A stretch of DNA of 64,000 bases from Acidobacteriota bacterium (GTDB lineage Bacteria; Acidobacteriota; Vicinamibacteria; Vicinamibacterales; UBA8438). Made by a program: the position numbers and the translations under genes. The stretch lies in contig VXRJ01000032.1 in the NCBI GenBank assembly GCA_009838525.1, positions 65,186-129,185 of the forward strand. The letters are read 5' to 3'. Position 1 is the first letter of the stretch; each line of letters starts with the position of its first letter. A model generated the notes under the pieces. That model worked only from the letters and a program-made list of their open reading frames with translations, searched no databases and was not told the origin of the DNA. Below, piece after piece: positions 14,855-27,462 of this stretch.

Positions 14855-14883
14855 TTGACCGTGCAAAAAAGTCATGCTAGGAT
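14855..14883 (+). promoter_or_regulatory. Sigma-70-like promoter for the RiPP precursor
   Basis: TTGACC (14855-14860), a 17-nt spacer, then TAGGAT (14878-14883). An AAGGAGG Shine-Dalgarno at 14927-14933 lies 6 nt before ATG 14940. Confidence 0.4.
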
Positions 14884-14939
14884 GCCGAAACTGCATGATG
14901 TGGCCCGGGTCGCCACGTCGGAAAGCAAGGAGGACTGCC

Positions 14940-15191
14940 ATGAGAAGTGGTGATCAGATGCTGGAGCAAATCGTTGAGAAGTCGGCCCTGGACCCCGACT
15001 TCAGGCAACAGCTCCTCGCAGATCCAAAGGCTGCCATCAGCGCGGAATTGGGCATCACAATTCCCGAGTCGATGAACATCCAGGTCCATGAGAGTGATAT
15101 GCAGACGGTGCATCTCGCGTTGCCACCGGATCCGCACATCACCGAGGAGCAACTCGAAGCTATCTCCGCCGGCCTTTGCTGCTGCTGGTAG
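14940..15191 (+). CDS. NHLP (nitrile-hydratase-like leader peptide) family RiPP precursor; predicted core LCCCW
   Basis: 83 aa from the SD-preceded ATG (the track ORF starts earlier, at 14874). The leader 'ALDPDFRQQLLADPKAAISAELGITIPESMNIQVHESDMQTVHLALPPDP..ITEEQLEAISAG' matches the TIGR03793 pattern, including the 'VLPP' box and a terminal Gly-type cleavage site. Five residues LCCCW follow. Confidence 0.85.
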   Translation: MRSGDQMLEQIVEKSALDPDFRQQLLADPKAAISAELGITIPESMNIQVHESDMQTVHLALPPDPHITEEQLEAISAGLCCCW

Positions 15192-15220
15192 GCAGAATCG
15201 CTGGCCGGACGAACCGCGGA

Positions 15221-15259
15221 GGCCTGCCGGCCGCTGGACGCGAAACCGGTCGGCAGGCC
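15221..15259. terminator. Hairpin between convergent precursor and operon ends (possible bidirectional terminator)
   Basis: GGCCTGCCGGCC (15221-15232) pairs with GGTCGGCAGGCC (15248-15259). This gives 12 bp including one G-U pair, with a 15-nt loop. There is no U-tract on either strand. Confidence 0.35.
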
Positions 15260-15304
15260 ATTGTGCGTCTGCGACACTCGCGCCCGCAGCACCTCGCGGG
15301 CGCG

Positions 15305-16423
15305 TCAGGTAGGGACTGCCGCGGACAGAACCATGAACACATAGGCTTTGGCTTTCCGAAGCTGATCTCCGGAGATCACGAGCTTTATGTGGTGAATGCC
15401 ACGCAGCAGTACAAAACGTCCGGACTTCCCGAAGAGGGCTGTCGGTTTCGAAACCCAGCCTGCCAGCGCCTTGAGCTTCTCCGGAACTACCAGATCCTCA
15501 TGGCTCAGGGCTTCCAGGAACGGATCCCAATCGGTCAGGCCGTCTAGCCAGTAACGTGAGTCCTTGGTATATCTCTGCTTCACGATGAGCGTCAGGCCTA
15601 GCGTCGGGCCGAGACCGCTTTCCTGAACGTCAATATTCACTCCGGTCCTGACAACGTTCGCGCGGTCCTTGAAGCGTGAAATCACCGAGTCGACGGTCGG
15701 AATCCGGCCCGGCCAGCCCGTGTCTTCCAGATAGGAACACAGTTCCTCCTGGGCCTGGAAACCCATGATCGCGAGGCGGATCGAGCGGGTGCGAGACGGA
15801 AACACGCCGAACGAGTCCATGCGGGTATCTTCCGGCTGCGCCAGGTAGGCTCGCTCGACGTTCTGCCGCTCCGCGTCATTCCTCTCCCAGCCTGCGCAGG
15901 AAACGAGCGCGTCCATCACCGTGACGACATCATCCACTTGATCGCGGGCACCGAGAATCGGGCGTTCGCCGGGCCGCAGGAACATCGCCGGTAGGAAACG
16001 TCCACCGTCACGCGCCGAGCCGACGTCGTACTCCAGCATCAACTTGCGGCCGACGATGTCGCGCAAGGGCGAGTTGTCGGCATCCAGTTGGCTGAACAGC
16101 CGCGCAATCGAGCTCGCGGTACCATCCGTCCCGTCGGCCCGCGCGCGCTCCTCGAAGAACGCCGCCGCTCGGGTCCCGCTCGCCAGCGAGACGCCGAAAT
16201 CCGCCTCGGGTCTGCGATCCTGCAGCGGCAGTTCAAAGCCGAATGGAAGGGCGCCCATCGTGATCGGATGTTCCCCGGCGCATTCGAGCAGGCGCCCCCA
16301 TTCGGGGTCTCCGATCAGAATCGGCGAAATCCTGTCTCGAAAGTGCCCGAGCAGGTCACCCATGGTGCCCCCCTCTTCGGCGAGGCGGTCCTGCGTCAGT
16401 GTGACTGCCTGGTCAATATCCAT
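15305..16423 (-). CDS. Uncharacterised protein, last gene of the RiPP operon (putative tailoring enzyme; ABBA-prenyltransferase-like pattern is speculative)
   Basis: 372-aa ORF 10 nt downstream of the cyclodehydratase gene. I recognise no cofactor motif. It has five paired beta-strand-like segments separated by helical stretches (see findings). Confidence 0.5.
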   Translation of the reverse strand: MDIDQAVTLTQDRLAEEGGTMGDLLGHFRDRISPILIGDPEWGRLLECAGEHPITMGALPFGFELPLQDRRPEADFGVSLASGTRAAAFFEERARADGTDGTASSIARLFSQLDADNSPLRDIVGRKLMLEYDVGSARDGGRFLPAMFLRPGERPILGARDQVDDVVTVMDALVSCAGWERNDAERQNVERAYLAQPEDTRMDSFGVFPSRTRSIRLAIMGFQAQEELCSYLEDTGWPGRIPTVDSVISRFKDRANVVRTGVNIDVQESGLGPTLGLTLIVKQRYTKDSRYWLDGLTDWDPFLEALSHEDLVVPEKLKALAGWVSKPTALFGKSGRFVLLRGIHHIKLVISGDQLRKAKAYVFMVLSAAVPT

Positions 16424-16432
16424 AACGCCGAC

Positions 16433-18820
16433 TCACGCGATTACGGGTGCTGGATTCAGATCGGCTTCATCGAGAGGGCGCTCGCGGAAACCCAGGCTGA
16501 CCGGCACATCGTACAGGCGTCCTGGCGCGAATCTCGCCCAGAAATGACGCATGCCCGGCACGACGACCCGCACCACCGGCATGCCGATGTCGGGCCGTGT
16601 CTGGTCCAACACCAGGAACTCCATGCCCCGGGCCTCGACAAGCGCGCGGCAATGCTCCACGTCGTCACGCATGTCCGTCGATTCGATCACCGGAAACTGC
16701 GACGCCTCGCCGAGGGGTACGTCGGCCGCCGGAGCCAGCCAGGAGCAGTCGGCGAGTCGAGCGGTGCGCCACCACCAGAGCGCCATCGGATCGTCGATCA
16801 TGGGTCGCCCGTCCCTGTTTCCGGGACGTGGCAGCCAGGAAAGGCATTGGTTCAATTCGCAAACTGCGCGCAGCGCGGCGGTACGCGGGTCGGCGTGTGC
16901 GCCGGCGCCGTAGATGATGTCCTCGGTCTTCGCGTTGGGTGTGCGCGAGAGCGCGACGAAGGTGGGAATGCCGATGTCGGACGTGACGTCGAGCATCCAG
17001 AGATCCCGCTCGAAGCGGACGTAATAGTCCGCCGCGGAAGCAAGGTACTCGTCGTCGAAGCTGGCAAGATCGACCGCAGGCACTCGTAGCCGGTTGTACC
17101 ACCAGATACCGAACGCGTCGCGCTCGACGAGTTCGTAGAAACCCTGCAGGATGGCCTCTTCCACCGTATTGCCGGCGGCGCAGCCGTTGGAGTCGGCAAT
17201 CAGGTCGGAGGGGCCACGCTGCTCCGGCGCCATGCTGTAGAGCATTGACGTCGGTAGATAGCGATGCCGTCCTTGCGTCAGCGACCACACCGGTGTCCAG
17301 TCGATTTGGGCGTCGGGATCGAGACGCGCCGGGACAATGTTGTACGGGTGGCCCCTGGCGTTGATGCTCTTCGCGTTGTCAAGCTGGTCGTCGCTGAAGA
17401 GCTGAGCGTCGTTGGGATGGATCGCTTCGTCTCCGCTGGCCAGTTCCGCAAACGGCTTACGGAAACGGATCTCGTCGCCATGAAAGGCGCCCGAATAGCG
17501 CTCGACCGCCTCCGAGAGCGCGCTGACTTCGGATTGAGCGCGTGTGCTGCCCTTGCCGGCGCTCTTGCTGCGCAGGCTGCGCCTGAGCGAACTCAAGCTC
17601 CGGCTTCGCATGCCGAGATTGCTTCCCGCCCAATAGACGTGAAGCCAGGAATCCGTCTCGTCGGTCGTTCGTGCAAGCCAGGTCACGACACCGCTGATCG
17701 GGCTTACCAGGTGGCGGTACTTGGCCAAGGTAGCTTCCGGCGCCACGGTGCGCACGCCACCGCTGTTGAAATGCGCTTTGGGACTCGCCTTCAGAAACAG
17801 CGGGACCGGCGGTCGATCCGGCCGATGTAACGCTTCGTCGCCGCAGGCCGGGCATTGGGGCCGGCGCATTACCCGATGGCTGGAAGTCGCGAACGTGCCG
17901 ACGTTCATCGCGACCACCTGTTCGTGAAGCGGGGCCGACTCATCAAGCACCAGCCACTTGACGACCTCCGCTGCGATCAGCCCGTAGAGCGCCTCGAGAA
18001 CGATCGGATCCGCTGCGAACGGCTTGAACGCAGCCTCCTCTCCGGCAACCGCGCGGAGGAAATTATGGACTTCCTGATGGCTGCGCAGGCGGTAGGCCAG
18101 GCAGTCCCAGCAGGGTCCTTGCGCATCCGCGCAAAAGATGGGGCCGAACAGGGCCTCGATGCCGCGTGGCCGCACGAGCGTCCACGGCGCTCTCGCCTCG
18201 AGCTGGCGTCGATTCACTTCCGCAAGTCGCGATTCGAGATAGTCCTCGCAGACGAATACAGTGAGCTCGGGCGCCACAGTTCCCACCCTGGCGCCGGATT
18301 CTTCCAAACGCCGGATCAACGGGCCTTCGTCACCGTCAACCGCAACACAGGATTCCGCCAACCGTTGTTCGACCCAGCGCGGCGATGCGCCAAGCGACGA
18401 CCAGTAGGCCGCTCGGCGTGGGTCCATGCCGTGCTCGGCAGAGACGACGTAGCCCCTGGCAGCCAGTGAACCAAGGGCCGCAAGCACATCCGCGGCGGCA
18501 TGAGCGCCCGCAAGCGCCGCCACAATCTCGTCCTGTGCGTGGCGACCGTCGACCAGCGGCAGCAGTTCGCCATACAGCTTGCCGTGCAGCAAGGTATTGA
18601 ACGACTCCGCCACGAGCAGCGTCTGTTGTTCGCCGATGTCGCGGAATTGGAGGTGCGGCGCAAGCGTGGGAAGCTCGACGAGGCCCTGGTCCGCAGGAGT
18701 CGTTCTCGTCAGGATCCCGGGCCGGGGATTGGCGTCCTTCCGGGATTGCACCTCAGGTTTCCGCGCCGGATCAGCCGGCATCTTCCAGGGTCCCGACGAG
18801 ACGCTCGAGAGCTTCGACAC
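16433..18820 (-). CDS. Fused E1-like/YcaO cyclodehydratase (TOMM-type, azoline-forming)
   Basis: 795 aa. The N-terminal docking/E1-like part has two CxxC pairs ('GPCWDCLAY', 'QCPACGDE'). The YcaO domain has 'SNGCAAGNTVEEAILQGFYELVERDAFGIWWYN'. The C-terminal Pro-rich tail is 'DLNPAPVIA'. An alternative start is M14 at 18781. It overlaps the upstream gene end (18771). Confidence 0.9.
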   Translation of the reverse strand: MSKLSSVSSGPWKMPADPARKPEVQSRKDANPRPGILTRTTPADQGLVELPTLAPHLQFRDIGEQQTLLVAESFNTLLHGKLYGELLPLVDGRHAQDEIVAALAGAHAAADVLAALGSLAARGYVVSAEHGMDPRRAAYWSSLGASPRWVEQRLAESCVAVDGDEGPLIRRLEESGARVGTVAPELTVFVCEDYLESRLAEVNRRQLEARAPWTLVRPRGIEALFGPIFCADAQGPCWDCLAYRLRSHQEVHNFLRAVAGEEAAFKPFAADPIVLEALYGLIAAEVVKWLVLDESAPLHEQVVAMNVGTFATSSHRVMRRPQCPACGDEALHRPDRPPVPLFLKASPKAHFNSGGVRTVAPEATLAKYRHLVSPISGVVTWLARTTDETDSWLHVYWAGSNLGMRSRSLSSLRRSLRSKSAGKGSTRAQSEVSALSEAVERYSGAFHGDEIRFRKPFAELASGDEAIHPNDAQLFSDDQLDNAKSINARGHPYNIVPARLDPDAQIDWTPVWSLTQGRHRYLPTSMLYSMAPEQRGPSDLIADSNGCAAGNTVEEAILQGFYELVERDAFGIWWYNRLRVPAVDLASFDDEYLASAADYYVRFERDLWMLDVTSDIGIPTFVALSRTPNAKTEDIIYGAGAHADPRTAALRAVCELNQCLSWLPRPGNRDGRPMIDDPMALWWWRTARLADCSWLAPAADVPLGEASQFPVIESTDMRDDVEHCRALVEARGMEFLVLDQTRPDIGMPVVRVVVPGMRHFWARFAPGRLYDVPVSLGFRERPLDEADLNPAPVIA

Positions 18821-20078
18821 AAAACGCAGAGGTTACGGATTCAGAGCCATGCCCTATCTGGCCGACGGCGCCCCACTTCAGCGACTGGTCGCCAAACGCG
18901 AGAAGCTCCGGCCAGCTGCCATCCTCGTGTTGCGAACCCAGAATCCTCTCGATTTCGCGCTTCGCGTCGATGCGTTCAAGGCTGCCGACGTGGTAGAGGG
19001 CCGCCATTGCCTGAGCGGTCTGCAGGATGTTGCCGAATTCTCCCTCCGGGTCTCGCAAGCCAAGGATGCGATCCGCGAGGACCGGGCGCAGTCGACCAAG
19101 AGCGGGCTGCGCGCGGACCATGGCACGGGCCGTTGCGTAGTAGATAGCGATCTTGTCCGGATACCACTTGGACGAGCCATCGAGCCGGTCTTCAGTAATG
19201 GCGGATTCCAACCATCGTTGGGCATCCCTGGTCTCGGGGCGGTCGCCAAGGCAGGCGATGACGTTCGCATTGACTACGGGATCGGCCTCGATGCGGAAGC
19301 TCGCCACGACATCGGGTTCGTCTTCCGCCAGCACCCAGGTCATGAAACAACCCCTCTCGTCGCGATTCGCCAGTATTCGGGCAGCGTTCCTTCCCAACAG
19401 AATCCAGGGGTGAGTCCGGATGACAAGTGAACAGAGCGTCGTACTGTCAAGATCCTGGGGAAGATGGCGGTAGTAGCGCCAGAATCCCGGATGCTCCATC
19501 GTGTCGACAAGATACGCCCGGGTACTGGTGCAGATGGCCCGGGCTTGCGCTTCACTGCTACTTTCCAGGGCAAGTACGCAGAGAGCCGAAACAAACGGAG
19601 GCCTCTCGAAATGCCGTGGTATATCCGGGTCAGCGATATTGAACCGGATGCAATGCCAGGCCCCGCGCTCGTCGATGTTCGATTCGATGAAGGCGAGCCC
19701 TCGGCGGATGCTCTCTCGGCCTGCCCTCGCCACTGCCTCGGGGGTAAGGGAACTCAACCGGGGAACCGCCCGTTTCGGGGCGGGGGGCCGAAGCGGCGGA
19801 GCCGGATCGTGCATCGTCCTCTTGAGAAACTCGAGTGAGGCTGCACCGGTCCTCGCCGCTTCCCGTTCTTCCGCGCTGAACCTGCTTCGCGGCGGAAGCA
19901 CCAGATGCGTCGCGAAATCGGTTTCTTCGTGCACGTGGATTTCATGGCGGTCGTCGAGCGGCGAGCCAAGTTCCTGCTCTATCGCATCCCTGGGATTCGC
20001 GAGCAGGCGCGCGCGAAACCCGCTGTCTTTCCCGGCTCTCGCGAGAAGGCGTTCTGTCGCGTTGACGGGTTCCTTCAT
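18771..20078 (-). CDS. NHLP-leader-like domain fused to a prenyltransferase/squalene-cyclase-repeat (alpha/alpha toroid) domain
   Basis: 435 aa. Residues 8-78 align without gaps to residues 8-78 of the precursor (26/71 identical, hand count). After a Pro-rich linker come repeats 'DERGAWHC', 'DERGCFMTW', 'DPEGEFGN' and a QW-type motif 'ILGSQHEDGSW' (QxxxGxW), plus 'DLDSTT'. Confidence 0.75.
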   Translation of the reverse strand: MKEPVNATERLLARAGKDSGFRARLLANPRDAIEQELGSPLDDRHEIHVHEETDFATHLVLPPRSRFSAEEREAARTGAASLEFLKRTMHDPAPPLRPPAPKRAVPRLSSLTPEAVARAGRESIRRGLAFIESNIDERGAWHCIRFNIADPDIPRHFERPPFVSALCVLALESSSEAQARAICTSTRAYLVDTMEHPGFWRYYRHLPQDLDSTTLCSLVIRTHPWILLGRNAARILANRDERGCFMTWVLAEDEPDVVASFRIEADPVVNANVIACLGDRPETRDAQRWLESAITEDRLDGSSKWYPDKIAIYYATARAMVRAQPALGRLRPVLADRILGLRDPEGEFGNILQTAQAMAALYHVGSLERIDAKREIERILGSQHEDGSWPELLAFGDQSLKWGAVGQIGHGSESVTSAFCVEALERLVGTLEDAG

Positions 20079-20082
20079 GGGC

Positions 20083-23028
20083 TCAGGCTACTTGCCTCTT
20101 GACCAGCTCCTTGAACACCCCGTCAACCTCCATAAGTTCCTCGAAAGTACCGCTTTGCACGACCTTTCCGGCCTGCATCACGTAGATGCGGTCAGCCTGT
20201 TCCAGCGTCGACAGTCGATGGGCGATGACGATCCGGGTGGAGGTCAGGAGGGCCAGGTTCTGCATGACCTCGGCCTGGCTCTCGTTGTCGAGCCAGTTGG
20301 TTGCCTCGTCAAGCAGCATGATTCGCGGGGTGCCGATGAGAGCGCGGGCAATCGTGACGCGCTGACTCTCCCCGCCTGACACGACGGATCCGCTGGCGCC
20401 AACCATCGTCATCATGCCCATGGGCATGGCCTTGATTTCGCGTTCGATGCCAGCCGTCCGGGCCGATTGCCACACCTCCTCGGTAGTTGTTCCCTCGTGG
20501 TGCGCGACGATGTTGTCCCAGAGATCCTGGGGGTGGAGTCGCACCGACTGTGGAACCGCCCCGATCTTTCGGCGCACCTGCTTCAGGTTCAGGTGCTTCA
20601 AGTCACGGCCGTCGTAGTACACCGCACCGGCGGATGGCCGGTCGATTCCAAGTGCCAGGCGGAACAGGGTGCTCTTGCCGGCACCGGACTCGCCGGCGAT
20701 CGCGACGAACTCGCCGGGACGGGCCCGAATCGTGACGTCGTCGAGAATCAACGGGCCGTCGGAATCGTAGCGGAAGGAAATATGGTCGAACAGAATCTCG
20801 CCGCCCAGACGTTCGACAGGCGCCCCTTCGACCTCGATTTCCGGCGTTGCAGCAAGTATCGGGCGCATCTGATCGAACGCCGGCAGCAAGGCGGCAACGG
20901 TGCCCAAAGACCCGCCGAGCCGGGCGATGGCGTACTGGAACGCGATGAAGACGGTGTACACGACGAGAAAATCGCCGACCGGGACGTTCCGGTCGCCCAC
21001 CGTTACCACCGCGAACAACAGCACTCCACCGGCCAGAAAGGGGAGCGCGGCGCCGAGTGCCCGCGAATGTCCTTCGAGCGCGCCGAGTTCGAGCTCTGCG
21101 CGCTTCTGCTCACGATAGTCCCGTGCCCAGATGGCGAAAGCCGATCCCTCCGCGTTTTCGACGCGCAGCTTGGCGATACCCTCCACGATCTGGAACAGCC
21201 GGCCGGCGACGCGACGTGATGCGTTGATCATCCGCCCGGAAGGTGACATCTGGCGTAGCCCAATGGCTACGGTAATCAGCAGCGAAGCCAGGCTGAAAAG
21301 CAGAGCGATGACCCCGAGCGCGGCATCGTAGAAGAAGATGACGGCGAAAACGGGAAGTAGAAAAATGACCGAGAGCGCGCTGTCGACGACGACTCCCTGC
21401 AGGCCATCGCGCATATTCTGGAACGTCATTCCGGACATGGCGAGATCGCCGGCTGAATGGCGGTGCAGAATCCCTGACGGAAGGCGCATGAGGCGGTCCC
21501 AGAAGGCAGCTTCGACACGTGACGCCGAGCGCCCCTCGAGCCGCATCATCGCCGTGTTCTGCAGCAGGTGCAGCAACGCGCCGAGCAAGCCGAACGCCGC
21601 TAACGTCACGGCCACTGCGTAGAGCACTCCGGCGCTGCCGCCCGCTACGATGTGGTTCGCAACGAATCCCAGGGCGAGCGCCGGCAGCAGTTTGATCAGG
21701 CCGCCCGGAATGCCGGCAATTACCAGCCGCACGATATCCCCGGCCGATCCATGCAGGGCGATTCGCAGCAGGTCCGCCAGCTTCACGTTCTCCGAAGGCA
21801 ACGGCGGATAGAACATCCACGCATCCTGCTGCAACGCTCCGGCGCGATCCGCGGTCATCCGCACGCTGCGCTTGCTGGCCGGGTCCACCTCGCGGTAGCG
21901 CCCGAACATCCCTGGCAGCAGGGCCACGGGCCGGCCGTCGACGGCGCGAAAGGCCAGCAGTGCGTTGCTGTCGCCGCGCCACCAGTTGCCCTCGGCCCTG
22001 AATCGCACGCGCCTGGCGCGTACGCCTGACGCATCGAGAATGTCAACGAGGCCGACTGGAGCATCGGAAGGTACCGAGCGCGACGGAATCCGGAAGTCGA
22101 TTCCCTGATGCCGGCCGACGATTCTCAAGGCATCGGCAAGAGCCGTGTCCTCCAAATCGGCATCCCGTTCGATCGGCAGGTCGTAGATGTTGAACAGCCG
22201 CCGCCGGGCGGTCTTCTCGGCCGTGCGGTGGCTGGTCGTGCGCTCGCGGTCGAGACTCGCCTCGTCGACCACGGCCAATCGGCGGTTCAGGCGCTCCAGG
22301 GCGAAAGCAACGACGTGAAAGAAGGCAAGTGCCGGCAGCAAGGCGCCTTCCCGCGCCAGCGCTTCAGTTGACTTGGCCGACACCGTCGACTCGTCGAACA
22401 GCGTGAGCCAGCTTGTCCGCGTCAGTGGTATCACTGCGGCGCGCGGGCCGCTTGCCTCGTCGAGTTCCGCCTGGTCGAGCATGTCCATGAACAGGCTTGC
22501 CCCGAGGGACGGTTCCGATACCCAGACGACACCGCGCCGCGCGGATAGCGTGCCAGGACCCAGAGTGCGGGTCATACCGGGTTCGGCCAGCGTCGTCGGT
22601 CGCGGAGAACGACTTACGAATCGAGCAAGTGCATCAGTAATGTCGGTCAGCCAGGTATCGGTGTGTTCCGCCAGTTCTGCCGGATCAACCTTGGACAGCC
22701 GGGATGCCGGCAGGCGTTTCAGAAGCGTGCCTGGCGACCCTTTGGCAATCACCCGGAGCGAGGTGTCTTTGTCGTTGTTGTCTTGTTCGTCCGGTGCGAC
22801 GCCCGGCAGCAGCCAGCCGGACTCGCGGCGCAGCAGATGCTGCGGGGCTGCCTGCTCGACCCCGTCCTTGAATTCGATCAAGAACAGATCGACGGTGCCC
22901 TGATCAATGAACCAGGCGCTATCCGCATCGTCGAGATCCACGGGGAGGTTGCCGGCGCAGGGCACGGATGTGCCGGATCGGGCCGCGAGTTCGGCTATCG
23001 ACGTGTACCGCGTACTGGTGTCCTGCAT
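20083..23028 (-). CDS. NHLP-type bacteriocin export ABC transporter, permease/ATPase subunit with N-terminal cNMP-binding-like domain (TIGR03797-like)
   Basis: 981 aa. N-terminal 'FIDQGTVDLFLIEF' beta-roll-like region, a 6-TM ABC exporter core, Walker A 'GESGAGKST', signature 'VSGGESQRV' and Walker B 'IMLLDEAT'. It has a 1-nt overlap with the upstream ABC gene. Confidence 0.85.
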   Translation of the reverse strand: MQDTSTRYTSIAELAARSGTSVPCAGNLPVDLDDADSAWFIDQGTVDLFLIEFKDGVEQAAPQHLLRRESGWLLPGVAPDEQDNNDKDTSLRVIAKGSPGTLLKRLPASRLSKVDPAELAEHTDTWLTDITDALARFVSRSPRPTTLAEPGMTRTLGPGTLSARRGVVWVSEPSLGASLFMDMLDQAELDEASGPRAAVIPLTRTSWLTLFDESTVSAKSTEALAREGALLPALAFFHVVAFALERLNRRLAVVDEASLDRERTTSHRTAEKTARRRLFNIYDLPIERDADLEDTALADALRIVGRHQGIDFRIPSRSVPSDAPVGLVDILDASGVRARRVRFRAEGNWWRGDSNALLAFRAVDGRPVALLPGMFGRYREVDPASKRSVRMTADRAGALQQDAWMFYPPLPSENVKLADLLRIALHGSAGDIVRLVIAGIPGGLIKLLPALALGFVANHIVAGGSAGVLYAVAVTLAAFGLLGALLHLLQNTAMMRLEGRSASRVEAAFWDRLMRLPSGILHRHSAGDLAMSGMTFQNMRDGLQGVVVDSALSVIFLLPVFAVIFFYDAALGVIALLFSLASLLITVAIGLRQMSPSGRMINASRRVAGRLFQIVEGIAKLRVENAEGSAFAIWARDYREQKRAELELGALEGHSRALGAALPFLAGGVLLFAVVTVGDRNVPVGDFLVVYTVFIAFQYAIARLGGSLGTVAALLPAFDQMRPILAATPEIEVEGAPVERLGGEILFDHISFRYDSDGPLILDDVTIRARPGEFVAIAGESGAGKSTLFRLALGIDRPSAGAVYYDGRDLKHLNLKQVRRKIGAVPQSVRLHPQDLWDNIVAHHEGTTTEEVWQSARTAGIEREIKAMPMGMMTMVGASGSVVSGGESQRVTIARALIGTPRIMLLDEATNWLDNESQAEVMQNLALLTSTRIVIAHRLSTLEQADRIYVMQAGKVVQSGTFEELMEVDGVFKELVKRQVA

Positions 23029-25271
23029 CAGCCTGACTTGACCAGCTTGAAATACGTACCATCCTCGTCCGCAATCAACTCGTCGTGCGTGCCCCGCTGC
23101 ACTTCCACACCCTTGTCGAGCACGATGATCTCGTCACAATCCCGCACGGTGCTCAGCCTGTGAGCCACGATCAGGCAGGTGACGCCGCGACGCCGCAAGG
23201 CGTCATCGACATATTCCTCCGTTGCGGCATCGAGAGCGCTTGTCGCCTCGTCCAGAACGAGCACTGTCGGATTACCCACCAACGCGCGAGCGATTTCCAG
23301 CCGTTGACGCTGTCCGCCGCTGAAATTCGATCCGCCTTCCTGCACGAGAGTGGAATACCCCTGCGGCCTGAGGAGAATGTCGTCATGGATGCACGCATCG
23401 CGCGCCGCGGCGATGATGACTTCATCCGGAACGGCCCGGTTCCACATGGTGATGTTGTCGCGTACGGACGCGGAAAAGAGCACGACCTCCTGATCCACCA
23501 TGGAGATGGACCGCCGCAGCACTTCGTCGGGAATCTCGTCGCGCGGATGCTCATCCAGCAGGATATCGCCCGACCAGGGCCGATAGATGCCGGAAACCAG
23601 ATGCGCCAGTGTCGACTTGCCGGAACCGCTGGGACCGACCACCGCAACCCGCTGCCCCGGCTTGATCACGAGGTTGAAGTCCTTGATCAAGGGAGGCCGG
23701 CTCTTGTTGAAGCCAAAGGTGACGCCTCGCAATTCGAGCTGGCCGGCAAGCTGGAGCCGTCCGTTGAAGGTGGGAATCGACTCGGACTCCGAACTTCGGC
23801 GGCTGAAGACGGGATCTTCAGCGGTCCTGGAAACGTCTTCGAGTCGCTGTAAATCGGTTTCGAGCGCCTGGCGTTTGTCGACGAACTCCAGGAAGCGTCC
23901 GACAGGCGCCAGAAACAGCTCCGCCAGGATGTAGAACCCGACCAGAGCCCCCAGCGTCATGTCTCCGGCGATGACCATGCTTGCCCCGACGGCAAGAATC
24001 GACGCGCTGCGAAGTACGCTGATCAGGCCCGGAAGCGCAGCATTGACATGGCCGAGTTGCGAGTAGAGCTGGCGCGCGTGCAGTTCGCGCGCCTGCTGAC
24101 CGCTCCAACGCGAATAGAACCGGTCGTCCGATCCGGTCATGCGCAGGTTGTCCGCATGACTCAACATCTGCATGCCGACGCCAATCAGCAATCCCTGTTC
24201 GCGCCGCATCGCCTGGCTTCGAACCGCCCGGGGTGAGTGGAGGAAGTAGGCGAGCACTCCGTGCACGACGGCCAGCAGGAGCACGATCAGCGTCAGCGTG
24301 ACGTCGTAGGCCAACATCGCGACGAGTAGCACGACGCTCATCGCCATATCGACAATGAGCACAAGAAACTGGTCCGTCAGATTCTTCGCGATTCTGTCGA
24401 TGGAAGAGACCCGATCGGTCAAGTCGCCGACCAGCCTGTGGGCAAAGAACTCCACCGGCAGGCGAAGCAGCCGCGACAACCCCCGGTCGTAGCCAATCAC
24501 CGAAATTCGAATTGCGAGCCGCTGCAGGAATCGGTGCTTGAGCAGGGACAGGACGTATACGAGGATGCCGCCGCCGAGCAAGGCAGCCACCAATCCGCCC
24601 CAGGGCCCCTGGCCATCCAGAACATCATCCACGAAGACACTGAGGGTTACGGGAACGACGAGTGCCAGCAACGTCAGCATGAATGTGCAGGCAATCGTGC
24701 CGGTCAGAACACTCCATTCTCCGGCAAGCAGGGCGCTCAACTGCGCCAGCAGGCCGGCCTGCTCACCACCGGGCTTGAAATCGGGTCCGCGCTTGAATCG
24801 CAGCGCGATTCCGCTGAAGCCCTTGGTGAACTCCGCGGCGGATAGCCTCCGCCGCCCCGTGGCCGGATCATTGAGATAGAAGAACCGGCTATCAAGCCCT
24901 TCGACTACGACGAAGTGACTGAATTGCCAGAATACGATCAGCGGCAACTGCAGCTTCCGGAGTTGATGGGCTCGTACGCTGAGTCCGCTGCATTCGAGAC
25001 CATAGTGCCGGGCGGCGCGCACAATACTCGCCGCGCTACTGCCGTCCCGGCTCACCTCGCACTTGTCGCGTAATTCGGTGAGCGACACCCAGCGCCCGAA
25101 GTAGCCCAGTACGCTTCCGAGGCAGGCGGCGCCACATTCTGTCGCGTGCATCTGCAACAGAATCGGCGTGGTTACCCTTTGCGTCGAGGGCTCCGGCGCG
25201 GCCTTTCGGCTTGCCCGACTGAAGATGCCCAACAGCATCCGTGGTGAAACCCTGCGTAGCACCGAGAGCAC
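23028..25271 (-). CDS. NHLP-type bacteriocin export ABC transporter with N-terminal C39 peptidase domain (TIGR03796-like)
   Basis: 747 aa. C39 catalytic residues are in 'LLQMHATECGAACLGSVLGYFG' (Cys), 'FSHFVVVEG' (His) and 'LNDPATG' (Asp). Walker A 'GPSGSGKST', signature 'FSGGQRQRL', Walker B 'VLVLDEATS'. Confidence 0.9.
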   Translation of the reverse strand: MLSVLRRVSPRMLLGIFSRASRKAAPEPSTQRVTTPILLQMHATECGAACLGSVLGYFGRWVSLTELRDKCEVSRDGSSAASIVRAARHYGLECSGLSVRAHQLRKLQLPLIVFWQFSHFVVVEGLDSRFFYLNDPATGRRRLSAAEFTKGFSGIALRFKRGPDFKPGGEQAGLLAQLSALLAGEWSVLTGTIACTFMLTLLALVVPVTLSVFVDDVLDGQGPWGGLVAALLGGGILVYVLSLLKHRFLQRLAIRISVIGYDRGLSRLLRLPVEFFAHRLVGDLTDRVSSIDRIAKNLTDQFLVLIVDMAMSVVLLVAMLAYDVTLTLIVLLLAVVHGVLAYFLHSPRAVRSQAMRREQGLLIGVGMQMLSHADNLRMTGSDDRFYSRWSGQQARELHARQLYSQLGHVNAALPGLISVLRSASILAVGASMVIAGDMTLGALVGFYILAELFLAPVGRFLEFVDKRQALETDLQRLEDVSRTAEDPVFSRRSSESESIPTFNGRLQLAGQLELRGVTFGFNKSRPPLIKDFNLVIKPGQRVAVVGPSGSGKSTLAHLVSGIYRPWSGDILLDEHPRDEIPDEVLRRSISMVDQEVVLFSASVRDNITMWNRAVPDEVIIAAARDACIHDDILLRPQGYSTLVQEGGSNFSGGQRQRLEIARALVGNPTVLVLDEATSALDAATEEYVDDALRRRGVTCLIVAHRLSTVRDCDEIIVLDKGVEVQRGTHDELIADEDGTYFKLVKSG

Positions 25272-25277
25272 GGGCTG

Positions 25278-25835
25278 CTAGGACCGCGCCATTCCCAAGA
25301 ATGCGGCCGGAGACTGCCTGCCGAGTTCGATGACGACCCGGCATTCCCTGCCCGCAAGGTCAGCCAGGTCGATGCCTTCCTCGAGGGCGATACCGACGCG
25401 GTGCACGGACACCGGCGCCGCAGGCTCGAACTCCGCCAGTTCCTCGAACAAACGAACAGCGGCAATCGCCACGACCTCCCCGCCCCGTGTATCGGCTTCT
25501 CCGTCCGCCGTGGTCAGCTCGATCTCCGCTGGCATGCCGGTCTCGATGCGCGGGACGACGGTGCCCTCGATCCAGACGAGCACCTGCACGGACCGGCGCC
25601 CCCCGCTCGGGTCGCCGGCGGTGTCGATGAGCAAACCGTCGACCGCAATACTCCGGGCCACGCTGCCGAAGACGAGCCACGCCGCGAGGACGAACAGGAA
25701 CAGCGCAACGGCGACGACAAGCAGACGCTCCCGCGGCGTGGAAATCGTCAGCAGCCGGTCGAGTTGTTCACGCTCTTCCTTCGCTTCGGCGACAGTATCG
25801 TGAAATGAGTTGAATGGATTGTTGAACACGGCCAT
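25278..25835 (-). CDS. Short HlyD-like membrane-fusion protein (NHLM-system type, lacking the coiled-coil hairpin)
   Basis: 185 aa. The N-terminus 'LDRLLTISTPRERLLVVAVALFLFVLAAWLVFGSV' (cytoplasmic tail plus TM) and the beta-barrel-like 'IETGMPAEIELTT...GGEVVAIAAV' resemble the ends of HlyD-family proteins. It is the first gene of the operon, 6 nt upstream of the C39-ABC gene. Confidence 0.55.
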   Translation of the reverse strand: MAVFNNPFNSFHDTVAEAKEEREQLDRLLTISTPRERLLVVAVALFLFVLAAWLVFGSVARSIAVDGLLIDTAGDPSGGRRSVQVLVWIEGTVVPRIETGMPAEIELTTADGEADTRGGEVVAIAAVRLFEELAEFEPAAPVSVHRVGIALEEGIDLADLAGRECRVVIELGRQSPAAFLGMARS

Positions 25836-26187
25836 TCAGGCTGCCCGCGAAAACGGGACAACTTCATGAACGGGGACTGTCACGGAATTATATGCAGTCT
25901 CGCCGAGGAAGGGTCAAGTTCCGAACGGCCCGGAAGGATCGCCTCGGGTGCTCGGCTCGAGTCAGCCGCGGGTGGCTGCCGCCAAGGAACTGGAGCTCGA
26001 TTCCGGGCCAGTGCGCATCCAGCGATCGCCCTGCGCATGAACGGTCATGCCCTCGATGCCGGACGCCTTCTCGTCGCCCGGACACGCGCCAGCGCCTTCT
26101 TCGGATTGTGCTAACTTGTTGTGCACGCGGCGCCGCGAAGTTCCTTAAGACGGGGTCATCGGCCGACGCCCATGGAAGCCAGGTGCG

Positions 26188-27462
26188 GTGATACAACCAG
26201 GTGGCAAGAGTTTACGGAAGATAGCGGTTGTTGGGCGAGGAACCGCCGGGTGCATGGCGGCGGCAAGCGTAACACGCCTTCATCCGGACCCCGACCACGA
26301 GCTACACCACATATATGACTCGCGCATTCCGGTAATCGGAGTGGGTGAAGGCAGTTGGCCAAGCCTCGTTCAGCAATTGCAGGAACTGACGAAACTTCCC
26401 CATGAAGCCGTTCAGCAACGCGTGCAAGGCACGCGCAAGTACGGTGTGGCGTTTGAAGGGTGGGGGCAGCGCAACCGGGACTTCACACACTACTTCACGC
26501 CGCAACAGGTGTCCTACGCCTACCACCTGTCTGCCGATTCAATGGCGGACTTGCTGAACGAAAGCGCCCGCGCGCGCCATATCGACGCGAGAGTTCTCAG
26601 TATCACCAGGGTGGAGGGTGGCGCTCAGGTCGAATTCGAAGGCCTGACGCCGGAACGCTACGACCTGGTCTTCGATGCCCGTGGGTTCCCGGCGGAACTT
26701 CACCCGGACCGGCACATCGACATCTCCTTCATCCCCACGAATACAGCCGTCATCCGCCGCTGTCCGGCGATCGTCCAGGAAAAAGAGGATATGCCGGTTC
26801 TGCAACCCACCTATACGCGTGCGGTTGCGCGTCCGCACGGCTGGATATTCGTCATTCCGCTTACCGTACACACGTCCTATGGGTATATCTTCAACCGCAA
26901 TGTATCGAGCCTTGACGAAGTTGAATCGGACTTTGACGCCTTCCTCGAATCCGATGGCGTATCGGAATTTGAGCAACGCGCCGTCATTTCGTTTCCGAAT
27001 TTCGTCCATCGTCATATTTATGATGGCGCAATAGCCCGGATCGGCAATGCAGCGGCCTTCATGGAACCCCTCGAGGCAACGGCGATCGTATCGGCGCAGT
27101 TGCAGATTGGGATGGTTCTCCACATACGCCTTAACCGTGCGATAGAGAATCTTGAGCGCGACGCTCCGGTGGTCAATCGATTCCTGGTCAACAACATGCT
27201 CTGCTACGGCCTGTTCGTCGGTTGGCACTATTCCTGTGGCTCGAAGTACGAGAGCAGGTTCTGGCGTCACGCTCGTGACCACGCCTGGCCGCAGCACCGG
27301 GAGGCAGCGGACCCCGAGGTGGTGGGTTGCGCCGCGCTCCGGAGATTCGACGAAATGATCGAACTGATGAACCAGTCCGTCATCGACAAGGCGGACTGGA
27401 ACCGGATGTGCGCGGTCCCGCTCACCAGCTATTGCCAGGTGTCCCAGGGCCTTGGTTGCTAG
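26188..27462 (+). CDS. Flavin-dependent tryptophan halogenase family protein (short form)
   Basis: 424 aa with a GTG start. 'KIAVVGRGTAGC' (GxGxxG), 'VIGVGEGS' (IGVGEAT-like), 'TRKYGVAFEGW' (the Lys of the K-x-G-x-x-F-x-x-W box), 'HGWIFVIPL' (WxWxIP variant) and 'FMEPLEATAI' (FxEPLEST box). Confidence 0.8.
   Translation: MIQPGGKSLRKIAVVGRGTAGCMAAASVTRLHPDPDHELHHIYDSRIPVIGVGEGSWPSLVQQLQELTKLPHEAVQQRVQGTRKYGVAFEGWGQRNRDFTHYFTPQQVSYAYHLSADSMADLLNESARARHIDARVLSITRVEGGAQVEFEGLTPERYDLVFDARGFPAELHPDRHIDISFIPTNTAVIRRCPAIVQEKEDMPVLQPTYTRAVARPHGWIFVIPLTVHTSYGYIFNRNVSSLDEVESDFDAFLESDGVSEFEQRAVISFPNFVHRHIYDGAIARIGNAAAFMEPLEATAIVSAQLQIGMVLHIRLNRAIENLERDAPVVNRFLVNNMLCYGLFVGWHYSCGSKYESRFWRHARDHAWPQHREAADPEVVGCAALRRFDEMIELMNQSVIDKADWNRMCAVPLTSYCQVSQGLGC

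Follow-up and report, generated by a model that had tools for sequence, protein, structure and literature searches.

A degenerate NHLP leader domain fused to a predicted class II terpene cyclase in a srp proteusin cluster

We describe a protein in which an NHLP domain, of the type found in proteusin leaders, is joined in frame to a predicted single-domain class II terpene cyclase. The protein, referred to here as the fusion, is encoded in a 64,000-nucleotide stretch of DNA from an Acidobacteriota bacterium (GenBank assembly GCA_009838525.1, contig VXRJ01000032.1, positions 65,186 to 129,185), which we call the window, and belongs to a cluster for a ribosomally synthesised peptide that carries post-translational modifications (a RiPP). 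We tentatively favour the interpretation that the fusion is an uncleaved two-part maturase, composed of a class II cyclase that would act on the prenylated C-terminal tryptophan of the precursor SrpE and of a docking domain derived from a leader.

The SrpE-type NHLP precursor with an LCCCW core, the fused YcaO protein and the tryptophan halogenase are all present in the window, and for this reason we identify its cluster as the published ‘srp’ (sponge-derived RiPP proteusin) cluster, as defined in PMC10858898 and bioRxiv 10.1101/2023.06.09.544420. In that system, the YcaO protein SrpC turns the three Cys of the LCCCW core carried by SrpE into thiazolines (PMC10858898, PMC10286304, bioRxiv 10.1101/2023.06.09.544420), and SrpI brominates the C-terminal Trp (PMC10858898, PMC10286304). 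SrpE of the window ends in ...HITEEQLEAISAG-LCCCW, with a core that is identical in 59/60 precursors of related loci, and its size of 83 aa (252 bp) agrees with that reported for srp precursors. Comparison with 59 orthologues indicates that its real start is MRSGDQ at position 14940; the mechanical open reading frame (ORF) begins 22 codons further upstream (MLGCRNC..., window 14874-14939, plus strand).

An intact and widely conserved fusion

The ORF at 18771-20078 on the minus strand encodes a single uninterrupted protein of 435 aa. A preliminary description of this DNA had aligned the fusion with the precursor without gaps up to Gly78 and counted 26/71 identities by hand; BLASTP reproduces this alignment, with 26/70 identities (37%), no gaps and an E value of 2e-14 from residue 9 to Gly78 in both proteins. 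When the precursor is numbered from MRSGDQ, the two correspond position by position over residues 1-78. A profile search with the N-terminus, the check that had been proposed at the time, returned NHLP similarity: residues 7-66 match the leader_NHLP profile (TIGR03793; E 7e-11, 41.8 bits), PF02979 NHase_alpha (E 2e-4) and the solved NHLP of MprE7 (8tb1; E 0.006). The leader_NHLP score lies below the curated cut-off of 50.9 bits and the alignment covers profile positions 5-63 of 77, while SrpE scores above the cut-off over positions 6-77 (E 5.5e-19, 67.8 bits). In an AlphaFold2 model of the fusion, with an overall predicted local distance difference test (pLDDT) of 87, residues 7-76 are predicted to form three helices, a beta-hairpin and a helix alpha4 (helices 7-17, 19-27 and 29-37; strands 48-53 and 56-60), a topology known for NHLP domains from nuclear magnetic resonance (MprE7, 8tb1; PMC10858898), with a pLDDT of 51-70 over residues 41-90.

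More than 1000 homologues share this architecture over its full length. All 120 close homologues among the matches listed (73-100% identity) are 431-466 aa long. A scan of species-representative genomes returned 80 loci with 66-85% identity to the fusion, all of them in metagenome-assembled genomes (MAGs), several from sponge-derived isolate series. These loci span Acidobacteriota, Gemmatimonadota, Alpha-, Gamma- and ‘Delta’-proteobacteria, Nitrospirales, Binatia, Latescibacterota and Nitrospinota, and most of them keep the gene order fusion, YcaO, 372-aa protein, SrpE. Residue-level conservation and the ratio of non-synonymous to synonymous substitution rates (dN/dS) were determined on 68 extracted orthologues, in which length differences occur in the linker only and are always in frame. 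The preliminary description had thus correctly seen an in-frame fusion of an NHLP-type domain to an enzyme-sized, terpene-cyclase-like domain in a RiPP cluster with E1-like/YcaO and C39-ABC proteins, and the search for the same architecture in homologous clusters that it called for bears this out. A frameshift or missed stop near the junction, which it had named as what would undo the finding, is ruled out by the continuous ORF and the same architecture in every full-length homologue.

Conservation of this kind also bears on whether the N-terminal domain is a relic or an artefact, i.e. the outcome of a chance read-through of a precursor gene into a cyclase gene, or of a frameshift, with an internal start yielding a working leaderless enzyme. 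A leaderless homologue with a precursor gene 163 bp upstream does exist, but the fusion has been kept in independent assemblies from many phyla, its NHLP domain has a dN/dS of 0.24 and several invariant residues, and Met89 (nt 19814), at which internal initiation had been suggested, is not conserved, being Leu in 35/68 orthologues. We therefore give this explanation almost no weight.

Features kept and lost in the fused NHLP domain

Constraint is unevenly distributed along the fusion, with dN/dS values of 0.24 in the NHLP nucleus (residues 1-62), 0.32 in residues 63-78, 0.15 in the junction (residues 79-97), 0.72 in the variable linker (residues 98-115; mean conservation 0.53) and 0.16 in the barrel. 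The values for the NHLP nucleus and the junction contrast with a near-neutral linker; the fused NHLP domain is under purifying selection, and we take it to be functional and not a relic. The fold-core residues and a His-rich hairpin (H45-E-I-H48-V-H50-E-E...T-H58) are invariant in the fusions. Gly78 is followed not by a Cys/Ser/Thr-rich or Trp-ending core but by the junction, the linker and a barrel of 320 aa; the junction, with a mean column conservation of 0.85, is as conserved as the barrel and is absent from leaderless homologues.

The features by which a leader is recognised and cleaved have fared differently. In SrpE, the cleavage region has Ala-Gly at positions -2/-1, and positions -4, -7 and -12 are occupied by Ile or Val, by Leu or Met and by Ile, respectively. 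In the fusions, position 72 (-7) is Arg in 67/68 orthologues, position 75 (-4) is Ala in 68/68, position 77 (-2) is Thr in 51/68 and Ala in 12/68, and -12 is Phe, Leu or Tyr, whereas Gly78 (-1) is kept in 68/68. The pattern of double-glycine (C39/PCAT) leaders, with GG, GA or AG at -2/-1 and hydrophobic residues at -4, -7 and -12, is therefore not found in the fusion. The L(X)4L motif, which SrpI and RRE domains contact and which C39 proteases are expected to contact by analogy (PMC10858898, PMC12455567), is ITEEQL in SrpE and reads [F/L]SxxER in the fusion. Helix alpha1, which sets YcaO-RRE specificity in MprE7/MprC (PMC12455567), shows up to 11 residue types per position in the fusions, while the same positions of SrpE, compared over the same 45 loci, are nearly invariant. 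Nor does the protein look like a TIGR03793 precursor, as it scores below the cut-off and has 435 aa in place of about 80-100 aa with a short modifiable core. From these comparisons the fused NHLP domain would not be a working leader, its recognition and cleavage features having been lost. The ‘complete copy’ of the leader that the preliminary description reported holds for the gapless alignment of residues 1-78, but not for the profile match, which ends at position 63/77, before the cleavage-region motif, while SrpE is matched to position 77.

These changes bear directly on the idea, put forward in that description, that the leader is a cleavable secretion tag. On this reading, the C39-ABC exporter would recognise the NHLP domain, cut after Gly78 and export a cyclase that could act outside the cytoplasm. 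It is true that the invariant Gly78 stands exactly at the cleavage position of the precursor, that 12/68 orthologues have A-G there as SrpE has, that the fusion gene directly adjoins two ABC exporter genes and that neither ATP nor a metal is required by class II cyclases (PMC12232559). However, with Arg at -7, Ala at -4 and mostly Thr at -2, with the second of the L(X)4L leucines that C39-type proteases contact (PMC10858898) gone, with a leader profile match that stops ahead of the cleavage motif and with a folded barrel of 357 residues as cargo, we consider such an export very unlikely. Moreover, leaderless homologues sit beside C39 exporters too, and both the isoprenoid donor and the prenyltransferase are cytoplasmic.

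The same losses speak to the suggestion that the fused leader is a decoy or regulator, which would compete with SrpE for the sites of the YcaO protein, the halogenase or the exporter and so set the flux or the order of steps. While the two share their fold and 37% identity, and several srp enzymes bind NHLP leaders, both mapped determinants of binding are lost from the fusion: the second Leu of L(X)4L has become Arg, and helix alpha1 varies where SrpE of the same loci is nearly invariant. In addition, a stoichiometric competitor borne on an enzyme would be costly, given that SrpE is reported to exceed all other srp cluster genes in transcription by a wide margin (bioRxiv 10.1101/2023.06.09.544420). 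Competition with the precursor thus seems highly improbable to us.

As to its origin, the fused NHLP domain is 37% identical to SrpE and 43% identical to the precursor of a distant sister cluster (L083, see below), and these two precursors are 45% identical to each other. Because it is about equidistant from both, the fused domain is best seen, at the sequence level, as an old paralogue of the SrpE leader and not as a recent copy; a recent duplication of SrpE as its source was rejected on the same values.

Two of the hairpin histidines, His50 and His58, which lie on opposite strands, are invariant both in residues 45-59 of the fusion (19902-19946, minus strand) and in residues 50-58 of SrpE (15087-15113, plus strand). 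They are also present in the L083 precursors and absent from MprE7, and His45 and His48 are invariant in the fusion as extras. These histidines could serve in metal binding or recognition, as a site found only in leaders that accompany the prenyltransferase-cyclase module.

A predicted class II terpene cyclase

Residues 116-435 of the model form an (alpha/alpha)6 barrel with pLDDT mostly above 90. A Foldseek search of the PDB with this model has AsDMS drimenol synthase (E 1.6e-11) and MstE (E 1e-8) at the top, with 8pak/8paj, 6ij1, SsDMS, squalene-hopene cyclase (SHC) and oxidosqualene cyclase among the further top matches (E 1.6e-11 to 5e-5), and a profile of 60 homologues compared with the PDB retrieves AsDMS (E 3e-29) and SHC (E 2e-25). 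The 50 Foldseek matches listed are class II cyclases and, from rank 39, thioester-domain proteins and one glucuronyl hydrolase. Neither LanC-like proteins nor protein-prenyltransferase beta-subunits are among them, and the barrel has no Pfam match to either. The terpene-cyclase-like character assigned to this domain earlier is therefore correct.

The barrel carries a variant of the DxDD/DxDT-type acid motif, D209-L-D211-S212. Across 60 diverse homologues D211 never varies, and D209, D211 and S212 (DLDS) are invariant in the 68 fusions. In HMMER alignments, the D-l-D-d columns of the family fall on DDLDTT of wild-type AsDMS and, in the D333N mutant, on DDLNTT; since D211 is aligned with the Asp that was mutated in D333N, we regard it as the counterpart of the catalytic Asp of AsDMS. 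In the DXDD motif, which varies occasionally and is DXDT in AsDMS, it is the middle Asp that acts as general acid (PMC12232559). Taken as a whole, the modelling predicts a single-domain class II cyclase with an intact acid motif at the C-terminus of the fusion. That the barrel cyclises an isoprenoid chain is suggested indirectly, by the conserved barrel aromatics (W200, Y202, F245, W248, Y306 and W389) and by the linkage to prenyltransferases.

A candidate prenyltransferase partner

The gene for a 372-aa protein, placed between SrpE and the YcaO gene, is syntenic in 71/80 loci. The protein has no Pfam or NCBIfam match. Its AlphaFold2 model (pLDDT 74) contains five alpha-alpha-beta-beta repeats, and the best 50 Foldseek PDB matches are all aromatic or indole prenyltransferases (E 3e-5 to 2e-3; template modelling (TM) scores 0.4-0.54), including AuraA, AmbP3, FamD1, NotF, DMATS, PriB, IptA, FgaPT2, CloQ and NphB. 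Furthermore, its entire sequence can be aligned with the N-terminal half of prenyltransferase-cyclase fusions of 670-691 aa (P0248, E 2e-8; P0218, E 4e-5), the C-terminal half of which is a homologue of the cyclase of the fusion. The 372-aa protein is thus likely, as judged from its model, to be an ABBA aromatic prenyltransferase and the partner of the cyclase. Other homologues of the cyclase are fused to a DMATS-like domain (P0183) or a trans-isoprenyl diphosphate synthase (trans-IDS)-like domain (P0194); in direct BLAST comparisons the DMATS-like N-domains of two proteins, P0183 and P0188, showed no similarity to the 372-aa protein, the link being seen only with P0248 and P0218.

A comparable set of genes occurs in the sister cluster L083, which contains a leaderless relative of the cyclase (P0136, 39% identity). 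The genes are arranged there as YcaO, NHLP precursor, 163 bp, cyclase and a gene whose product is homologous to the 372-aa protein (29% identity, E 1e-32), and the cluster has three NHLP precursors, all of them ending in Trp (..PIW, ..PLW and ..EPW). The peptide beside the prenyltransferase-cyclase fusion P0248 ends in ...SGW. A C-terminal Trp therefore recurs in the precursors found near the module (LCCCW, ..PIW, ..PLW, ..EPW and ..SGW), and the 372-aa protein seems to define an unannotated family of peptide prenyltransferases tied to Trp-ending precursors. The gene upstream of the leaderless homologue P0134 bears no relation to the 372-aa protein, and no precursor can be recognised in the peptide upstream of P0137.

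Precedents for such chemistry are available. According to PMC13290415, which cites Hubrich et al. 2024, the prenyltransferase-cyclase maturases NctPC and ChrPC prenylate Trp and then cyclise the chain, and PalQ prenylates the C-terminal Trp of the NHLP precursor PalX (PMC10853753). The DMATS-like and trans-IDS-like fusions among the cyclase homologues correspond to the two types of maturase that NctPC and ChrPC represent. As a further observation, one locus (L091) has a prenyltransferase-cyclase fusion of the same families amid a PqqD-like RRE, a ScmC-like protein, two P450s and a Nif11-type peptide, a setting which indicates that the module is combined with several RiPP classes.

Proposed role of the fusion

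The prenyltransferase fold, the prenyltransferase-cyclase fusions, the gene order of L083, the Trp-ending precursors and the precedents of NctPC/ChrPC and PalQ together are explained most economically by prenylation and then cyclisation at the C-terminal Trp of SrpE. The domain identities, the conservation, the selection and the loss of motifs are results of the analysis, while this chemistry and its site, like the docking role and its partner, are inferences. In the pathway that we propose, the YcaO protein makes thiazolines from the core Cys of SrpE, SrpI brominates the core Trp and the 372-aa ABBA prenyltransferase would most likely attach an isoprenoid chain to that Trp. The cyclase would then protonate the terminal double bond via Asp211 and fold the chain into rings, so that the cryptic srp product might be a brominated thiazoline peptide bearing a cyclised isoprenoid.

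The fusion itself probably arose when a precursor gene directly upstream of a leaderless cyclase gene, an arrangement still unfused in L083, became joined to the cyclase; the core and the recognition and cleavage motifs would have been lost afterwards. The NHLP domain and the conserved junction would now form a permanent, uncleaved docking or adaptor module with no use in export, holding the cyclase in the maturation complex, be it on the prenyltransferase, on the SrpE leader or on the free leader site of a dimeric maturase. In this way, docking through NHLP would achieve non-covalently what the prenyltransferase-cyclase fusions achieve covalently. Among the possibilities raised in the preliminary description, docking by a leader in cis is the class that we find most plausible; its contacts would probably be other than those of a real leader, with helix alpha1 variable and L(X)4L destroyed.

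Several observations weigh against this proposal. The model does not give the placement of the NHLP domain relative to the barrel, as the pLDDT is only 51-70 for residues 41-90, and the docking role is deduced from the features that the NHLP domain has retained or given up. In the fusion, Ser takes the place of the third Asp of DxDD, where the precedent, AsDMS, has Thr. The prenyltransferase call is made at the level of the fold, on a medium-confidence model (pLDDT 74, TM 0.4-0.54) with weak sequence links (E 2e-8). The window genes examined, in the cluster and beside it, include no isoprenyl diphosphate synthase. Leaderless homologues evidently work without an NHLP domain, whose contribution may be modest. 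Finally, the published srp work, in which the product is called cryptic, reports thiazolines and bromination as the only modifications.

We also considered that the N-terminal part acts within the molecule and docks onto nothing: the NHLP domain and residues 79-97 would pack on the mouth of the barrel as a cap or as part of the substrate pocket, in place of the gamma domain of two-domain cyclases, or simply stabilise or solubilise the enzyme. In favour of this, selection on residues 79-97 is as strong as on the barrel (dN/dS 0.15), the model is confident about residues 91-100 (pLDDT 87), and the active site of most class II cyclases lies where two domains meet (PMC12232559). Yet the 18-residue linker between junction and barrel is near-neutral and variable in length, the pLDDT is low over residues 41-90 and leaderless relatives have no such cap, and we find an intramolecular role unlikely.

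A more specific form of the docking model, which we judge to be rather doubtful, is a true ‘leader in cis’. Here the fused domain would pair with the SrpE leader, perhaps via the HEIHVHEE...TH hairpin, or occupy the leader site of the prenyltransferase, and thereby assemble a non-covalent complex of prenyltransferase, cyclase and substrate, whose product would be a brominated thiazoline peptide with a polycyclic terpenoid. If true, it would be the first case in nature in which leader mimicry recruits a RiPP enzyme.

Comparison with known systems

The window is a member of the srp family, sharing with the described clusters (SrpE/SrpC/SrpI) the precursor (NHLP leader, ITEEQL/NLTEEQL, LCCCW), the fused YcaO protein, the tryptophan halogenase and NHLP-type exporters; those clusters likewise come from MAGs of sponge symbionts across phyla. 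The preliminary description, although right about the RiPP setting, had overlooked that the cluster is the known srp cluster, that the barrel has an intact class II acid motif and that the 372-aa gene is its likely partner prenyltransferase. Neither the 435-aa fusion nor the 372-aa protein is mentioned in PMC10858898 and PMC10286304, where only SrpE, SrpC and SrpI are discussed (the 2021 JACS srp paper is not covered by this statement).

With NctPC and ChrPC, as far as they are described in PMC13290415, the window has in common an MstE-like single-domain class II cyclase and an ABBA- or trans-IDS-type prenyltransferase targeting Trp in a RiPP (including proteusin) pathway. The Trp expected in the associated precursor is also there, as SrpE ends in Trp, which we predict to be the acceptor. 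Unlike NctPC and ChrPC, the window encodes prenyltransferase (15305-16423) and cyclase (18771-20078) separately, on either side of the YcaO gene, its cyclase is fused to a leader-type NHLP domain, and the predicted target is a C-terminal brominated Trp beside three thiazolines. AsDMS (9mhs/9m7d) and MstE (6sbb) share with the cyclase their fold, an aligned general-acid Asp and a fourth motif residue other than Asp (DLDT, as against DLDS in the fusion), but they are 16-18% identical to it and act on farnesyl diphosphate or prenylated benzoate, not on a peptide. Also, AsDMS is fused to a HAD phosphatase, whereas the window cyclase is fused to a leader domain.

In its predicted topology and its length to the Gly between leader and core, the fused domain agrees with proteusin NHLP leaders (TIGR03793; MprE7, 8tb1), to which its sequence match is significant. 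It differs from them in falling below the profile cut-off, in lacking a core, L(X)4L and the hydrophobic residues at -4 and -7, and in being followed by an enzyme of 357 residues from which it is probably never cleaved.

Leaders are usually regarded as disposable substrate handles, and such domains normally occur on the peptide substrate only. The nearest conceptual parallels to the fusion may be the engineered leader-enzyme fusions (the LctM ‘ConFusion’ enzymes and the LynD-leader fusion), in which the recognition motif is kept to activate the enzyme in cis while the window fusion has lost it, and the Nif11 domain/cupin domain proteins of NCBIfam, uncharacterised proteins with a leader-type sequence on an enzyme domain that belong to another leader family and another fold. 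The window fusion shows a leader that selection has long maintained within an enzyme, although the motifs for its recognition and cleavage are gone. It represents a natural experiment on which surfaces of NHLP mediate protein-protein contacts, and possibly a design principle for building multi-enzyme RiPP pathways.

What was already known are the srp cluster and the occurrence of class II cyclases in RiPP pathways. The literature searched, which did not cover Nguyen JACS 2021 143:10221 and Hubrich Chem 2024 10:3224, holds no description of the srp prenyltransferase/cyclase pair, of the split arrangement or of a degenerate NHLP leader on a cyclase, and a literature search for other srp gene names returned nothing relevant. 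The srp clusters occur worldwide in sponge microbiomes and in many bacterial phyla. Should the 372-aa protein be a prenyltransferase and the 435-aa protein a class II cyclase, a peptide-terpenoid hybrid would be expected from srp clusters, and no longer just a small brominated azoline peptide; if true, this prediction yields definite masses and enzymes to look for.

Organisation of the srp cluster

The fusion gene lies in a co-directional row of six minus-strand genes, flanked by the divergent genes for the precursor and the tryptophan halogenase (Table 1). Beyond 14940-27462, the genes are housekeeping or catabolic and unrelated to the cluster. The exact fusion protein is recorded as a ‘hypothetical protein’ of an Acidobacteria MAG.

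Table 1. Features of the srp cluster and of the fusion in the window
Feature	Position	Strand	Remarks
SrpE precursor, 83 aa	14940-15191	+	NHLP leader, ITEEQL, SAG, core LCCCW
372-aa protein	15305-16423	-	predicted ABBA-fold aromatic prenyltransferase
Fused E1-like/RRE and YcaO cyclodehydratase (SrpC type)	16433-18820	-	YcaO E 1e-96, TOMM_cyclo_SagD 1e-82, cyclo_dehyd_2 1e-40
Fusion, residues 116-435 and stop	18771-19733	-	predicted single-domain class II terpene cyclase-type (alpha/alpha)6 barrel
Fusion, acid motif D209-L-D211-S212	19443-19454	-	variant of DxDD/DxDT type
Fusion, variable linker, residues 98-115	19734-19787	-	
Fusion, junction, residues 79-97	19788-19844	-	A[AT]SLEFL[RK][KR]T[LM][HY]DPAPPxR; replaces core peptide
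Fusion, residues 63-78	19845-19892	-	counterpart of the leader's disordered region, L(X)4L and cleavage site; degenerate [F/L]SxxER..A..TG
Fusion, NHLP nucleus, residues 1-62	19893-20078	-	helices alpha1-alpha3 and beta-hairpin ending VLPP
NHLP-type export ABC transporter, 981 aa	20083-23028	-	no peptidase domain; TIGR03797 E 8e-209, residues 295-980
C39 peptidase/permease/ATPase exporter (PCAT)	23028-25271	-	TIGR03796 E 8e-252, Peptidase_C39 E 1e-33
Short HlyD-like protein, 185 aa	25278-25835	-	TIGR03794 E 9e-6, positions 6-56 of 421 only
Flavin-dependent tryptophan halogenase (SrpI type)	26188-27462	+	Trp_halogenase E 4e-45; in 50/80 loci

A profile search finds a winged-helix domain at residues 54-125 of the YcaO protein. 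The 981-aa ABC protein has an N-terminal extension of about 290 aa (residues 1-294; 22147-23028, minus strand) outside TIGR03797 and with no Pfam match, which could be a candidate leader-binding region. The short HlyD-like protein is not a truncation artefact, since the same short form is kept in 58/80 related loci.

In many srp loci, an extra gene of about 800 aa is located between the fusion and YcaO genes (for example L002 11383-13779, plus strand, and L055 6579-9089, minus strand). It combines a membrane fatty-acid-desaturase/His-box domain with a GlnE-like nucleotidyltransferase domain and is absent from the window. In three loci from Paracoccaceae MAGs (L055, L068 and L072), the fusion is accompanied by an exporter, a halogenase and the desaturase-GlnE gene, with the YcaO, prenyltransferase and SrpE genes absent within 10 kb, and the cluster may be rearranged, split or decaying there. 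The whole cluster is shared by many phyla at 66-90% protein identity (L001-L080), which implies extensive horizontal transfer of srp clusters within sponge microbiomes; one MAG has two copies of the cluster (L020 and L021).

Within the window, the fusion gene runs at its 3' end into the beginning of the YcaO ORF. The two share 50 nt with the GTG start (18771-18820), or 11 nt with the ATG further downstream (MPADP...), and this overlap suggests translational coupling of the two genes.

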